Assembly: GCA_018064745.1 (NCBI GenBank)
Contig: JAGHUR010000011.1
Coordinates: 6,137 to 70,136, forward strand
Source of the DNA: Candidatus Fiminaster equi
GTDB taxonomy: Bacteria > Bacillota_I > Bacilli_A > RFN20 > CAG-826
Reading direction: 5' to 3'
Length of the DNA stretch: 64,000 bases
The translations under genes and the position numbers were made by a program. The notes beneath the pieces are model-generated. The model saw nothing but the letters and a program-made list of their open reading frames with translations, had not been told where the DNA came from and made no database searches. Of this stretch, positions 4,531 through 44,897 are shown one piece after another (within the stretch, counting starts at the first letter, position 1; every line of letters begins with the position of its first letter).

Positions 4531-4818
4531 TTAGTCATTATCGACAGTAAATAAGTGACGTACAACATTTTGATCAATTTTTGCTAAACGAGAGAATTCG
4601 TTTAAAGCAGCTTCGTCAGCAGTGAGTTTAAGAACTACATAATAGCCTTTTGTTTGCTTATTGATTGGATAAGCAAAATCTCTTAAACCCCATTCTTTAA
4701 CATCGCCGAGCTTTGCTCCGTTAGATGTAAGAATTCCGTGAAGTTTTTCGATTTCAGCCTTCCTTGCAGCTTCATCGAGTCCGTCTTTCACGATGTACAT
4801 GAGTTCGTACTTTTTCAT
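4531..4818 (-). CDS. rpsF: 30S ribosomal protein S6
   Basis: MKKYELMYIV... is canonical S6. First gene of the rpsF-ssb-rpsR operon. Confidence 0.95.
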   Translation of the reverse strand: MKKYELMYIVKDGLDEAARKAEIEKLHGILTSNGAKLGDVKEWGLRDFAYPINKQTKGYYVVLKLTADEAALNEFSRLAKIDQNVVRHLFTVDND

Positions 4819-4845
4819 ATTCTTTTACCTCCCTTTGGTCTTCTG

Positions 4846-4864
4846 GCTGACATCTTCTGTCAGC
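4846..4864 (-). promoter_or_regulatory. rpsF 5' leader hairpin (possible S6:S18 autoregulatory element)
   Basis: Perfect 7-bp stem gctgaca/tgtcagc with a 5-nt loop, between the promoter-like element and the SD (aagggagg). Position resembles the r-protein leader described upstream of rpsF in Firmicutes. Its identity with that family is not verified. Confidence 0.35.
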
Positions 4865-4890
4865 AGAGAGAAACGCTTTCGCGTAGGTAT

Positions 4891-4919
4891 ATTATACACA
4901 AGACGTTTGCGTGTGTATA
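4891..4919 (-). promoter_or_regulatory. rpsF operon promoter-like element (TGTGTATAAT -10 region)
   Basis: Minus-strand tgtgtataat at 4891-4900, with a weak -35 (tataca) 17 nt upstream. It forms an 8-bp inverted repeat with tgtgtata at 4912-4919. Confidence 0.5.
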
Positions 4920-5036
4920 CAAAAATATGTTGGTTAGTAAATTATTGGAATTTTTTACATATATTAAAAATACCTGGGTAATACGTTAAATATGTTGTTT
5001 ATATATTATTAATATATGTAACGTATATCCCCCCTA

Positions 5037-5065
5037 TTGTAAGCTATTAAACAGTATGATAAATT
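5037..5065 (+). promoter_or_regulatory. promoter-like element for the orphan unit in the lysS-rpsF gap
   Basis: TTGTAA, a 17-nt spacer, then TAAATT preceded by TGa (extended -10). Confidence 0.45.
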
Positions 5066-5114
5066 ATGTTCGCCAATTTAAGAGATTGGATAGTTTAGAA
5101 GGAGGAACAAGCCC

Positions 5115-5237
5115 ATGACTAAATGTGTGGGAATTCACAGGCATTTAGTCGGAAAGGGGGTTTCCACTAATGGAGGCACTCCTGGTGCTATTTCTTGTTT
5201 TAGTAATGGTCAAGTTGCTTTTCAAGGAATAGCCTGA
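5115..5237 (+). other. candidate 40-codon small ORF, or core of a ~220-nt structured sRNA (unassigned)
   Basis: AGGAGG at 5100-5105 lies 9 nt before the ATG. ORF reads MTKCVGIHRHLVGKGVSTNGGTPGAISCFSNGQVAFQGIA*. The region is visibly more GC-rich than the surrounding spacer and holds serial hairpins (5117-5150, 5151-5165). It ends at a strong terminator. Too short to appear in the ORF track. Confidence 0.3.
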
Positions 5238-5252
5238 CTTGCTTGTGAATCC
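5226..5252 (+). repeat. 27-nt direct repeat, copy 1 (GGAATAGCCTGACTTGCTTGTGAATCC)
   Basis: 22/27 identical to copy 2, which lies exactly 70 nt downstream. The two copies bracket the terminator hairpin. Confidence 0.7.
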
Positions 5253-5264
5253 CAATAAACGAAG

Positions 5265-5295
5265 AAAAGAGACCGGCGGCAACCGGTCTCTTTTT
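5265..5295. terminator. bidirectional intrinsic terminator (lysS on the minus strand, orphan unit on the plus strand)
   Basis: gagaccgg-cggcaa-ccggtctc 8-bp GC-rich stem, with an A-run upstream and TTTTT downstream. Confidence 0.8.
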
Positions 5296-5322
5296 AGAAT
5301 TGCTTGACTTGCTTGTAATTCC
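5296..5322 (+). repeat. 27-nt direct repeat, copy 2 (AGAATTGCTTGACTTGCTTGTAATTCC)
   Basis: See copy 1. Its ends, GAATT...AATTC, are self-complementary. Confidence 0.7.
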
Positions 5323-5361
5323 TACTTATATGATACACTACTGAAATAAAATTTCAATATG

Positions 5362-6852
5362 TTATTTGCCTGAATCCTTCATGCATGGGAAGAGAAGAAC
5401 TTCTCTGATGGATGTTTGATTAGTCATAAGCATGACGAATCTATCGATTCCGATACCGATACCGCCTGTTGGAGGCATACCGTATTCAAGAGCTTCAAGG
5501 AAGTCTTCATCCATTTCAGACGCTTCTTCATCACCTGCAGCTTTAGCTTCAAGTTGTTTTACCAAACGTTCTTTTTGGTCTAGTGGATCATTAAGTTCGC
5601 TATAAGCGTTTCCATATTCCATTCCACCAATAAAGAGTTCAAATCTATCTGTGAACATTGGGTTGTCTTTGCACTTTTTGGTGAGCGGTGAAACTTCAAT
5701 TGGGTATTCATGGACGAATGTTGGTGTTTGAAGTAAATCATCACATTTTTCTTCAAAGAATGCATTGAGAATGTAGCCAACACTGTTCCAGTGTTTTTCA
5801 AGTTTGATGCCGTTATCTTTTGCAAGTTTAACAGCTTCTTCCATAGTAGTAACTTTGTTAAAGTCGATTCCTGTAGCTTCCAAAACACATTCTTTCATTG
5901 TCTTCCAACCAAATGGTTTTCCAAGATCTAATGTACCTTCACCATAAGGAATTGTGGTTGTGCCGTGAATCTTCATAGCGACTTCTTTGAAGAGGTTTTC
6001 TGCAAAGTGTCTCATATCTTGAAGATCACCATAAGCTTGATAAAGTTCAATTGTTGTGAATTCTGGATTGTGTTTTGTGTCCATTCCTTCGTTACGGAAT
6101 AAACGACCAATTTCATAAACTTTTTCCATACCACCAACGATACATTTCTTTAAAGAAATTTCGGTAGCAATACGAAGATAAAAATCCTTATCTAATGTAT
6201 TGTGATGAGTAACGAATGGTCTTGCTGCAGCACCGCCTAAAATTGGAGAAAGAATACTTGTCTCAACTTCGGTAAATCCAAGGCTATCACAGTAGTCTTG
6301 AATTGCACGAATAATTTTTGGTCTTGCTAAGGCAATTTTCATTGAATCATCATTCATAATTAGGTCAACATAACGGTGACGATATCTTTCTTCAACGTCA
6401 GTTAAACCATGGAATTTTTCAGGTAATGGACGAAGTGATTTTGTGAGGTGTGTGAATTTAGAAACTTTGATGGTCATTTCTCCTGTTTGAGAGAACATAA
6501 TGTGACCTTCAACACCACAAATATCGCCAATATCTGAAAGTTTAAATACTGAGTAATTTTCTTCACCTAAATAATCGATGCCTAACCAGCATTGAATGTT
6601 GCCAGTAACATCTTTGATGTTCATAAAGGCTGCTTTACCCATTTTACGTAAAGCCATAATACGTCCAGCAACTTTAACTTCTACTGGATTTGCTTGTAAT
6701 TCTTCGTTTGTTTTTCCGGCGCATTTTTCGCGAACTTCTTTGATTGAACTTGAGCGTTCAAATTTTTGTCCAAATGGTTCTACACCGAACTCTTCGTAAC
6801 GTGGAAGTTTGTCTCTTCTTGCACGTTCTTGATCTGTTAATTTACGTTCCAT
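5362..6852 (-). CDS. lysS: lysyl-tRNA synthetase (class II)
   Basis: Class II motifs are present (FRNEG, ...GGIGIGIDRFVMLM). I prefer the start at MERKLTDQE (ATG at 6852, preceded by gaggt) over the track's longer ORF starting at 6897. Confidence 0.95.
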   Translation of the reverse strand: MERKLTDQERARRDKLPRYEEFGVEPFGQKFERSSSIKEVREKCAGKTNEELQANPVEVKVAGRIMALRKMGKAAFMNIKDVTGNIQCWLGIDYLGEENYSVFKLSDIGDICGVEGHIMFSQTGEMTIKVSKFTHLTKSLRPLPEKFHGLTDVEERYRHRYVDLIMNDDSMKIALARPKIIRAIQDYCDSLGFTEVETSILSPILGGAAARPFVTHHNTLDKDFYLRIATEISLKKCIVGGMEKVYEIGRLFRNEGMDTKHNPEFTTIELYQAYGDLQDMRHFAENLFKEVAMKIHGTTTIPYGEGTLDLGKPFGWKTMKECVLEATGIDFNKVTTMEEAVKLAKDNGIKLEKHWNSVGYILNAFFEEKCDDLLQTPTFVHEYPIEVSPLTKKCKDNPMFTDRFELFIGGMEYGNAYSELNDPLDQKERLVKQLEAKAAGDEEASEMDEDFLEALEYGMPPTGGIGIGIDRFVMLMTNQTSIREVLLFPCMKDSGK

Positions 6853-44269: not shown

Positions 44270-44354
44270 ATCTTAATTTAGCATTATTATACTGATTTCT
44301 TAATAAAAGAAAAAATGTAATGATAAGAATTTTTGTATTTGCTATAATGTTTTA

Positions 44355-44436
44355 GCCATCGCAATGGTCTACTACGAACCAGGTCAGGGCAGGAATGCAG
44401 CAGCCTTAAGAAGATCAGATTATGTGCGATGGTTTT
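44355..44436 (+). ncRNA. ffs: small (4.5S-type) signal recognition particle RNA
   Basis: Closing stem gccatcgca...tgcgatggt. Domain IV core ACCAGGUCAGGGCAGGAAUGCAGCAGCC matches the universal CCAGGUCAGGUCCGGAAGGAAGCAGCC with a GGAA tetraloop. TATAAT at 44344-44349 and a T-run at the 3' end. Confidence 0.85.
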
Positions 44437-44441
44437 AAAAT

Positions 44442-44897
44442 ATGAAATCCATTGATGAAAAATTCATGTTACTTGCAATTAAAGAAGCAGAGAAATCTGC
44501 GTCTTTAGACGAAGTTCCAGTGGGTGCAATTATTGTAAAGGATAACAAAGTTATCGCTCGTGGTCATAACCTTAGAGAAAAGAGTAATGATCCAACAAGT
44601 CATGCTGAAATAAATGCAATTAGAAAAGCTTGCAAAAAGCTTGGCAGTTGGAGACTAGAAGATTGCACAATGTATGTCACTATTGAACCTTGTTCAATGT
44701 GTGCCGGAACTTTACTTTGGACAAGAATTAAAAGAATTGTCTATGGTGCATGCGATTTAAAAGGCGGTGCCTTGGGAAGTTCCTTTTCATTATTTGAAGT
44801 TAAGAATATAAATCATCATCCAGAGATAGTTGGAGGCATTCTTCAAGAAGAATGTGGAAAGATGATGAGCGACTTTTTCAAAGAAAAGCGTAAATAA
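44442..44897 (+). CDS. tadA: tRNA-specific adenosine deaminase
   Basis: CDA zinc motifs HAEINAI and PCSMCAG. 151 aa. Confidence 0.95.
   Translation: MKSIDEKFMLLAIKEAEKSASLDEVPVGAIIVKDNKVIARGHNLREKSNDPTSHAEINAIRKACKKLGSWRLEDCTMYVTIEPCSMCAGTLLWTRIKRIVYGACDLKGGALGSSFSLFEVKNINHHPEIVGGILQEECGKMMSDFFKEKRK

Follow-up and report, generated by a model that had tools for sequence, protein, structure and literature searches.

A putative type I toxin-antitoxin-like module with par-type architecture between lysS and rpsF in Candidatus Fiminaster equi

The lysS-rpsF intergenic region of Candidatus Fiminaster equi (assembly GCA_018064745.1, contig JAGHUR010000011.1) was analysed within a stretch of 64,000 nucleotides, called here the window. 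The genes rpsF (4531-4818, minus strand) and lysS (minus strand, stop codon at 5362) enclose a gap of 543 bp (4819-5361). This is the length given in an earlier description of the same DNA made without database searches (the sequence-only reading), which proposed that the gap contains an orphan promoter-to-terminator unit for either a 40-codon Gly-rich small open reading frame (ORF) or a structured small RNA (sRNA). The fragment ~4950-5360 of this gap shows an AT-rich palindromic segment, a predicted plus-strand promoter, the 40-codon frame (ORF-A) behind a strong Shine-Dalgarno sequence (SD1), a hydrophobic frame of 20 codons (hORF) with its own Shine-Dalgarno sequence (SD2), and a bidirectional terminator located between two direct repeats. 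A second predicted promoter, on the minus strand, would direct a short antisense RNA towards the same terminator (Table 1). Comparison with the sequences of relatives indicates that this fragment is probably a dispensable, chromosomally inserted type I toxin-antitoxin-like module with a par (Fst/RNA II)-type architecture, in which hORF would encode the toxin.

Table 1. Features of the unit between rpsF and lysS, in window coordinates.
Feature	Position	Strand	Description
AT-rich palindromic segment and C6 run	4950-5036		arms 4955-4972 / 5004-5021; C6 at 5030-5035
Predicted toxin mRNA promoter	5037-5065	+	-35 TTGTAA at 5037-5042, 17-nt spacer, TG-extended -10 TGATAAATT at 5057-5065
Predicted toxin mRNA	5072-5299	+	~228 nt, both ends predicted
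5' hairpin	5073-5089	+	part of the toxin mRNA
5' partner of the long-distance helix	5093-5114	+	covers SD1 (AGGAGG, 5100-5105) and the bases before ATG 5115; pairs with 5240-5260
ORF-A	5115-5237	+	40 codons, ATG at 5115 behind SD1 AGGAGG (5100-5105)
Hairpin P1	5117-5133/5134-5150	+	part of the toxin mRNA
SD2 hairpin	5151-5165	+	GGAAAGGGGGTTTCC; part of the toxin mRNA
SD2	5154-5160	+	AAGGGGG here, GGAGG in other alleles; held in the small hairpin
hORF	5170-5232	+	20 codons and TAG, MEALLVLFLVLVMVKLLFKE; predicted membrane-active toxin; +1 frame relative to ORF-A
Long hairpin P3	~5187-5233	+	part of the toxin mRNA
Direct-repeat copy 1	5227-5252	+	GAATAGCCTGACTTGCTTGTGAATCC; spans the hORF stop codon and the 3' untranslated region (UTR); predicted antisense target
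Bidirectional intrinsic terminator	5265-5294		stem 5265-5276/5283-5294; serves toxin mRNA (+), antisense RNA (-) and lysS (-)
Direct-repeat copy 2	5297-5322	+	GAATTGCTTGACTTGCTTGTAATTCC; reverse complement is the 5' end of the antisense RNA
Predicted antitoxin sRNA	5322-5256	-	~66 nt: single-stranded 5' seed, terminator hairpin and U-tail UUUUCUUCGUUU
Predicted antisense promoter	5357-5330	-	-35 TTGAAA at 5357-5352, 16 nt, -10 TATCAT at 5335-5330

The comparison includes 98 loci: 80 were obtained by scanning a genome collection with RpsF and 18 by exact-protein look-ups with RpsR, RpsF variants and the 40-aa product of ORF-A. The RpsF of the window has an exact match only in assembly GCA_024500545.1, and the nearest species representatives in the genome scan are metagenome-assembled genomes (MAGs) from animal gut samples, labelled 'Bacilli bacterium'. 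The unit was detected in nine sequences, which were divided in four to five allele types. Type A contains the window, L081 and L095; type B contains L001 and L085; type B' contains L097; type C contains L002 and L083; and type D contains L088. Most relatives show lysS directly upstream of rpsF, with a gap of ~150-280 nt in which the unit is absent and an ordinary lysS terminator, the rpsF promoter and the rpsF leader are found; exact look-ups of SSB and of some RpsF variants returned only such empty sites or nothing new. Two ENA contigs encode an identical RpsF (P0009): L088 (643-1192) has a gap of 540 nt with the type D unit, and L089 (440-631) has a gap of 181 nt without it. This represents a presence/absence polymorphism between close strains. 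In L086, L087 and L090-L093 (~450-1350), a gene encoding an MscS-type mechanosensitive channel of 288-291 aa, and not the unit, is located between lysS and rpsF. Insertion seems to have occurred repeatedly at the lysS-rpsF junction.

The neighbour at the far side of the unit is not always lysS. In type C, a convergent ORF encoding a lipoprotein-like protein of 579-585 aa occupies this position (L002:1216-2952; L083:1-1691); its N-terminus is MKTKAHILTGLSLCAFLVCSCAC and no Pfam hit is on record for it. Despite this different neighbour, the type C unit is complete up to the antisense promoter. Among the window, L001 and L002, the rpsF leader, the AT-rich segment and the plus-strand promoter are ~95-100% identical, and identity falls to ~50-60% across ~5100-5330, so that divergence is concentrated in the body of the unit.

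The plus-strand RNA between 5070 and 5300 shows a minimum free energy (MFE) of -92.3 kcal/mol, versus -58.5 +/- 4.8 kcal/mol for dinucleotide shuffles (z = -7.0); for the minus strand, z is -5.1. The G+C content is 0.40-0.47 at 5090-5210 and 0.20-0.25 at 4910-5060, a measurement which agrees with the G/C rise reported for 5090-5260 in the sequence-only reading. A consensus fold was obtained with RNAalifold from the alignment of the unit in seven sequences, and it contains six helices: the 5' hairpin, P1, the SD2 hairpin, the two parts of P3 and the terminator. Double, compensatory changes are found in 20 of the 47 consensus pairs, versus two to five in controls with slid partners, and 90.9% of the alignment cells form standard pairs, versus 37-54% when partners are slid by one to three columns. 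None of 500 shuffles reached the observed pairing values. The hairpins predicted from the letters alone at 5117-5150 and 5151-5165 are located exactly there, and relatives keep them through compensatory changes, as that reading had proposed to check. A further pairing that it suggested, between the SD-proximal GGAACAAG and CTTGTTTT at ~5195-5202, is used neither in the MFE folds nor in the consensus fold; ACAAGC pairs instead with GCTTGT at 5241-5246 in the MFE folds. Both Shine-Dalgarno sequences are held in intramolecular structure: SD2 in its small hairpin, and SD1 in a long-distance helix with the 3' UTR. In types A, B and D, the SD1 region forms its most stable duplex with the 3' UTR of its own allele, type C being the exception.

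ORF-A shows the best SD and ATG of the unit (AGGAGG with a spacing of 9 nt, conserved in all alleles), found where the sequence-only reading had placed them, and it is called by gene callers in two assemblies. These features would favour the 40-codon Gly-rich peptide as the product of the unit. However, the initiation region of ORF-A is conserved and its product is not: the different alleles show 40, 25, 25, 35 and 18 codons with unrelated sequences, in which only M-x-K/N at the start recurs, and a 1-nt frameshifting indel separates the near-identical type C copies L002 and L083. Private substitutions fall at codon position 3 in only two of nine cases, and all three changes between the window and L095 are non-synonymous. 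Exact look-up of the 40-aa peptide gave no record, and its homologues are limited to one near-identical copy in 5.8 billion clustered proteins. The proposal that this frame is the gene of the unit is therefore hardly credible. A fusion of ORF-A with hORF by frameshifting was also considered and rejected, because the relative frame of the two ORFs is +1, -1, -1 and +1 across copies and differs even within type C. For annotation, the lesson is that, in a unit of this kind, the frame with the most convincing SD and ATG is not the one whose product is conserved.

The frame of hORF is open and hydrophobic in the nine copies despite ~50% nucleotide divergence, and its length (20 codons) and stop column are identical in types A-C. 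The encoded peptides are MEALLVLFLVLVMVKLLFKE in type A, LEYLTILVLVLVALKLLYKD in type B, LEFLSVLVLILVVLKLLFKD in type B', IPYLVLLVVILVLVAMLVNN in type C and IEYLVMLFLIMVVLTVYYKKLLILPWVP in type D, the last with 28 residues. Their hydropathy (GRAVY) is 2.0 in the window and 1.6-2.5 across alleles. Of the 12 substitutions found within types, 10 affect codon position 3 and 10 are synonymous (binomial P = 5.4e-4), the two non-synonymous changes being L>Q and M>I. The peptides of types B and B' differ only by conservative replacements (Y>F, T>S, I>V, V>I and A>V). A minus-strand ORF of 45 aa with a TTG start (5145-5282), antisense to the unit and running through the terminator, has third codon positions coincident with those of hORF and could mislead codon-position tests if this coincidence is overlooked; it was rejected as a coding frame, since it is open only in type A and shows stops in types B, C and D. 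From the codon-position bias, the conservative replacements and the disruption of this co-phased minus-strand frame, we conclude that hORF is probably translated and, as far as substitution patterns tell, it is under purifying selection. The sequence-only reading had considered a type I toxin unlikely on the grounds that the peptide was not hydrophobic, a judgement made on ORF-A; hORF, the direct repeat around the terminator and the convergent antisense promoter had escaped notice.

The start of hORF varies between alleles. In types A-C, a distance of 8-9 nt separates SD2 from the start column downstream of it, and this column contains ATG in type A, TTG in type B' (L097), CTG in type B, ATT or ATA in type C and ATT in type D. 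The recurrence of near-cognate codons in the column was judged weak as statistical evidence, because single substitutions from an ancestral ATG would give the pattern by descent. ORF-A overlaps or abuts hORF in every allele, with relative frames and overlaps which vary between them; in type D, the AUU of hORF and the UGA that ends ORF-A overlap as AUUGA.

Part of these data would also suit a purely non-coding structured sRNA, with a hydrophobic frame that arises only as a consequence of hairpin arms rich in U and G. The structure is very strong and shows compensatory changes, hORF has no canonical start in three of the four allele types, and no Rfam family matches, hence the sRNA would be a new RNA. 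Stem constraints, however, predict no three-base periodicity, and the within-type changes show a clear one (10 of 12 at position 3, 10 synonymous). Likewise, the same ORF length and stop column are kept across ~50% divergence, amino acid replacements are conservative and SD2 keeps its distance to the start column in types A-C. On this balance, a non-coding unit is quite unlikely.

The bidirectional terminator at the 3' end of the unit, whose stem is where the sequence-only reading had located it, shows 13 pairs on the minus strand, a T-run on both sides and five stem pairs with compensatory changes across alleles. The two direct repeats that flank it are 85% identical. Their sequence differs between allele types, and the two copies match within each genome; correlated changes in both copies are also found within types (GCATGAC in L081 and CAAACTGCCTTGAC in L097). 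Flanking direct repeats are unique to the unit among ~10 bidirectional terminators of the window and 57 of the comparative loci, except for two AT-rich low-complexity cases found in the architecture scan. Copy 1 doubles as the 3' partner of the SD1-sequestering helix. The predicted antisense promoter begins 5 nt past the lysS stop codon, just beyond copy 2, and scores 10/12 in the promoter scan. It is kept in the four types, with a -35 of the form TTGnnn and a -10 which is TATCAT, TATTAT, TATATT or TATAAT, the perfect TATAAT being that of type D. The conserved plus-strand sequence AAACGAAGAAAAG corresponds to the U-tail of the antisense RNA. Since transcription of lysS enters the shared terminator, the lysS 3' UTR would contain the same antisense sequence.

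In the window, the duplex of the antisense seed with its cognate mRNA is predicted at -32.8 kcal/mol, versus a shuffle mean of -15.0 +/- 2.9 kcal/mol. Across alleles, cognate pairs range from -23.6 to -40.1 kcal/mol, pairs with other allele types from -13.6 to -26.7 kcal/mol and shuffled seeds from -15 to -18 kcal/mol, and the diagonal is best in every row of the 5x5 matrix of seeds and mRNAs. When copy 1 was masked, no second antisense target was found above the shuffle background, and SD1, SD2 and both start codons are left uncovered. The repeats could be read in another way, as remnants in a duplicated or rearranged piece of lysS 3' UTR, terminator and rpsF upstream DNA with no independent function; in favour of this, the terminator is indeed used by lysS on the minus strand, with the repeat on both of its sides. 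In relics, however, the two copies would not stay matched within each genome at ~50% divergence between genomes, nor would hairpins persist through compensatory change or coding periodicity be retained, and type C holds the whole unit beside a different gene. We regard this origin without function as very improbable. The autonomous promoter-to-terminator unit with a conserved structured RNA proposed by the sequence-only reading stands, and its choice between a small ORF and an sRNA does not: a structured mRNA for a different peptide together with an antisense RNA leaves no real either/or.

The promoter-like element that would direct the toxin mRNA was recognised in the sequence-only reading at the coordinates of Table 1, and transcription would start at ~5072. 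In L081, L095 and L088, both hexamers (TTGTAA and TG-n-TAAATT) are unchanged, with up to 8 of the 17 spacer positions altered. The element scores 8/12 plus the extended TG, and a generic promoter scan left it unlisted. Upstream of it, the inverted repeat of the palindromic segment shows arms of 18 nt with 94% complementarity. Every allele type retains this segment, even the divergent type D, and the empty sites L003 and L089 lack it, so that it is present or absent together with the unit; with the C6 run, it could be a regulator site or an UP-like element. Type B copy L085 (1088-1400) shows a deletion of ~131 nt, equivalent to ~4949-5079 of the window, which takes the toxin -35 and -10 and the 5' arm of the first hairpin. 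The same copy retains intact hORF, repeats, terminator and antisense promoter, and its deletion looks like a natural silencing of the toxin. On the other side of the palindromic segment, the rpsF 5' leader (4825-4890, minus strand) shows two hairpins before a GGGAGG SD and is ~75-90% conserved in the loci of at least 25 relatives. We take it to resemble the S6:S18-binding rpsF leader motif; no Rfam model matches it at E <= 10.

Searches for known families or for further copies of the unit gave few results. None of the covariance models of Rfam 15 reached its gathering score in the gap when the whole window was scanned, and a relaxed scan of 4780-5420 (E <= 10) gave only chance-level matches with E = 1.2-9.5, among them the RatA model (20.2 bits versus a gathering score of 49, E = 6.7). 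The view that the unit matches no known family, for which the sequence-only reading had proposed an Rfam scan, is in line with this: no Rfam family explains it. The sole gathering-score match in the window is a bacterial small signal recognition particle (SRP) RNA at 44348-44444 (plus strand, 66.8 bits). A tRNA/tmRNA scan found nothing. Two scans of metagenome contigs with the conserved promoter patterns gave no matches, and neither searches of plasmid and phage collections nor distant blastn gave a match to the unit.

The toxin-antitoxin reading has to be weighed against several points. Both promoters and all RNA ends are predictions. The nine copies, in four to five allele types, belong to one narrow clade and one genomic site; nhmmer profiles of the unit found no paralogue in the 64-kb window or the 98 loci, all copies being at the rpsF-upstream site. 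The codon-position statistic of hORF rests on 12 substitutions. Types B, C and D show no other in-frame canonical start for hORF and type D lacks SD2, so that translation there needs non-canonical initiation or coupling. None of the hORF peptides has a match in Pfam or NCBIfam at E <= 10, and they do not show the Fst/Ldr signature, that is, the P/D/S/TxxxG(C) motif, the Trp position and the charged C-terminal tail (PMC7472228). The peptide, of 20 residues and nearly devoid of a charged tail, falls at the bottom of the size range of known type I toxins. The antisense seed reaches no ribosome-binding site. In types A, B and D, copy 1 is contested between the seed and the helix that sequesters SD1, and the effect of this competition could in principle be to open SD1 instead of closing it.

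Alternatively, hORF could encode a harmless small membrane protein, of the regulatory or accessory-subunit type, whose mRNA is under the control of a cis antisense RNA without toxin-antitoxin behaviour. All observations made at the sequence level (hORF as a coding frame, the structure of the mRNA and the co-variation of the antisense seed) fit this explanation equally well, the peptide has no toxin-family match and the start codons are weak in most alleles. On the other hand, addictive or selfish modules, and not housekeeping small proteins, typically show a presence/absence polymorphism, a rapid turnover of alleles with self-specific pairing and a loss of the toxin promoter alone, as in L085, and the multi-layer translational locking is characteristic of toxin mRNAs (PMC4147584). 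A harmless protein is consequently considered unlikely, and a type I toxin-antitoxin-like module is preferred.

In such a module, the toxin mRNA would be made in a translationally closed form, with 5093-5114 paired with 5240-5260, SD2 in its hairpin and most of hORF in P3. The hORF start would be weak (AUG here and CUG, UUG, AUU or AUA elsewhere), and ribosomes loaded at SD1 and ORF-A may open the structure, a help from a leader ORF which would resemble mok or a standby site. The antisense RNA of ~66 nt would be produced from its own promoter, and its sequence would also be present in the lysS 3' UTR. Its 5' seed is predicted to anneal to copy 1 of the repeat, over the stop codon of hORF and into the 3' UTR, in addition to the contact between the complementary terminator hairpins. 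As neither ribosome-binding site is covered, decay triggered by the duplex is most likely, and not a par-like masking of the start site; it would involve RNase III-type decay or disruption of the 3' end, as in txpA/RatA and bsrG/SR4. If the antisense supply failed, the peptide would insert into the membrane and arrest or kill the cell.

A more ambitious version of this reading, which we hold as speculative and would not expect to prove correct in all its parts, is that the unit founds a new type I family of uncultured gut and rumen Bacilli which joins three features. The toxin would be of ~20 residues, with a near-cognate start (CUG, AUU or AUA) and dependent on a mok-like leader ORF. The antitoxin sequence would exist in two forms, as an independent sRNA and as the 3' UTR of the mRNA of the essential gene lysS. 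Finally, one 3' UTR segment would co-evolve with the ribosome-binding region of the mRNA, the antisense seed and the stop codon region. If this were true, the alleles would form a natural series of orthogonal RNA-RNA specificities at one chromosomal site.

To our knowledge, annotation routinely overlooks type I loci, and next to nothing is known of them beyond cultured model Bacillota and enterobacteria. If the toxin-antitoxin reading is correct, a lineage of the gut and rumen that is uncultured and genome-reduced would be added to those with the par-type architecture, and its toxin family would be new and exceptionally short. At one site, the locus has four to five natural allele types, in each of which antisense seed, mRNA target and, in three types, the SD-sequestering helix would have co-evolved. 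They form a ready-made test set for the diversification of RNA-RNA specificity and the avoidance of cross-talk. Testable questions also arise about non-AUG initiation, coupling to a leader ORF and the placement of an antitoxin in the 3' UTR of an essential aminoacyl-tRNA synthetase gene.

Among known systems, par has been described as a toxin RNA of ~230 nt with convergent promoters, a shared bidirectional terminator, direct repeats and intramolecular SD sequestration (PMC7472228). The unit resembles par of Enterococcus faecalis pAD1 and the chromosomal par-like loci in these traits: a toxin mRNA of ~230 nt and a short antisense RNA made from convergent promoters; a shared bidirectional terminator whose complementary hairpins are one contact site; oppositely transcribed direct repeats which are the second contact site, poorly conserved and system-specific; and an intergenic chromosomal location in Bacillota (PMC7472228). 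In contrast to par, the mRNA repeat of the unit is at the hORF stop codon and 3' UTR and not over the start codon or SD, so that the antisense RNA would not be expected to mask initiation directly. The peptide is of 20 residues, or 28 in type D, where ~27-35 are usual in par, and lacks the PxxxG motif, the conserved Trp and the charged C-terminal tail. The strong upstream SD1 with its leader ORF and the start codons that include CUG, AUU and AUA are further differences.

In txpA/RatA and bsrG/SR4 of Bacillus subtilis, as in the unit, a convergent antisense RNA contacts only the 3' part of the toxin mRNA; they show no complementarity to the initiation region, and RNase III-dependent decay is expected (PMC4147584). 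Their complementarity at the 3' end is full over ~75-120 nt and direct repeats are absent, whereas in the unit only the terminator truly overlaps, a duplicated segment providing the additional pairing. Their toxins have 38-59 aa, and the hORF peptide is shorter. With hok/mok/sok of plasmid R1, the unit shares the long-distance 5'-3' pairing which closes the full-length toxin mRNA, and an overlapping upstream frame with a good ribosome-binding site which precedes a poorly initiated toxin ORF (PMC4147584). Sok pairs with the mok initiation region, whereas the antisense RNA of the unit misses that of ORF-A; moreover, the hORF peptide is unrelated to Hok, and the frame and overlap of ORF-A and hORF vary between alleles. 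The 5'-3' locked toxin mRNA of aapA1/IsoA1 is of a type to which the unit can also be likened.

Regarding size, Ibs toxins have 18-19 aa, so a peptide of ~20 residues can act as a type I toxin. Like those of the Ibs/Sib system of Escherichia coli (PMC4147584), the hORF peptide is very short and almost purely hydrophobic. Unlike the antisense RNA of the unit, Sib, on the opposite strand, covers the whole ibs ORF and its ribosome-binding site, and the Ibs/Sib system belongs to a Gram-negative host and shows neither repeats nor a shared terminator. Taken with its sequence features, the module is best read as one that would work like a par-type type I system, yet is not a member of the Fst family and would represent a new toxin family.

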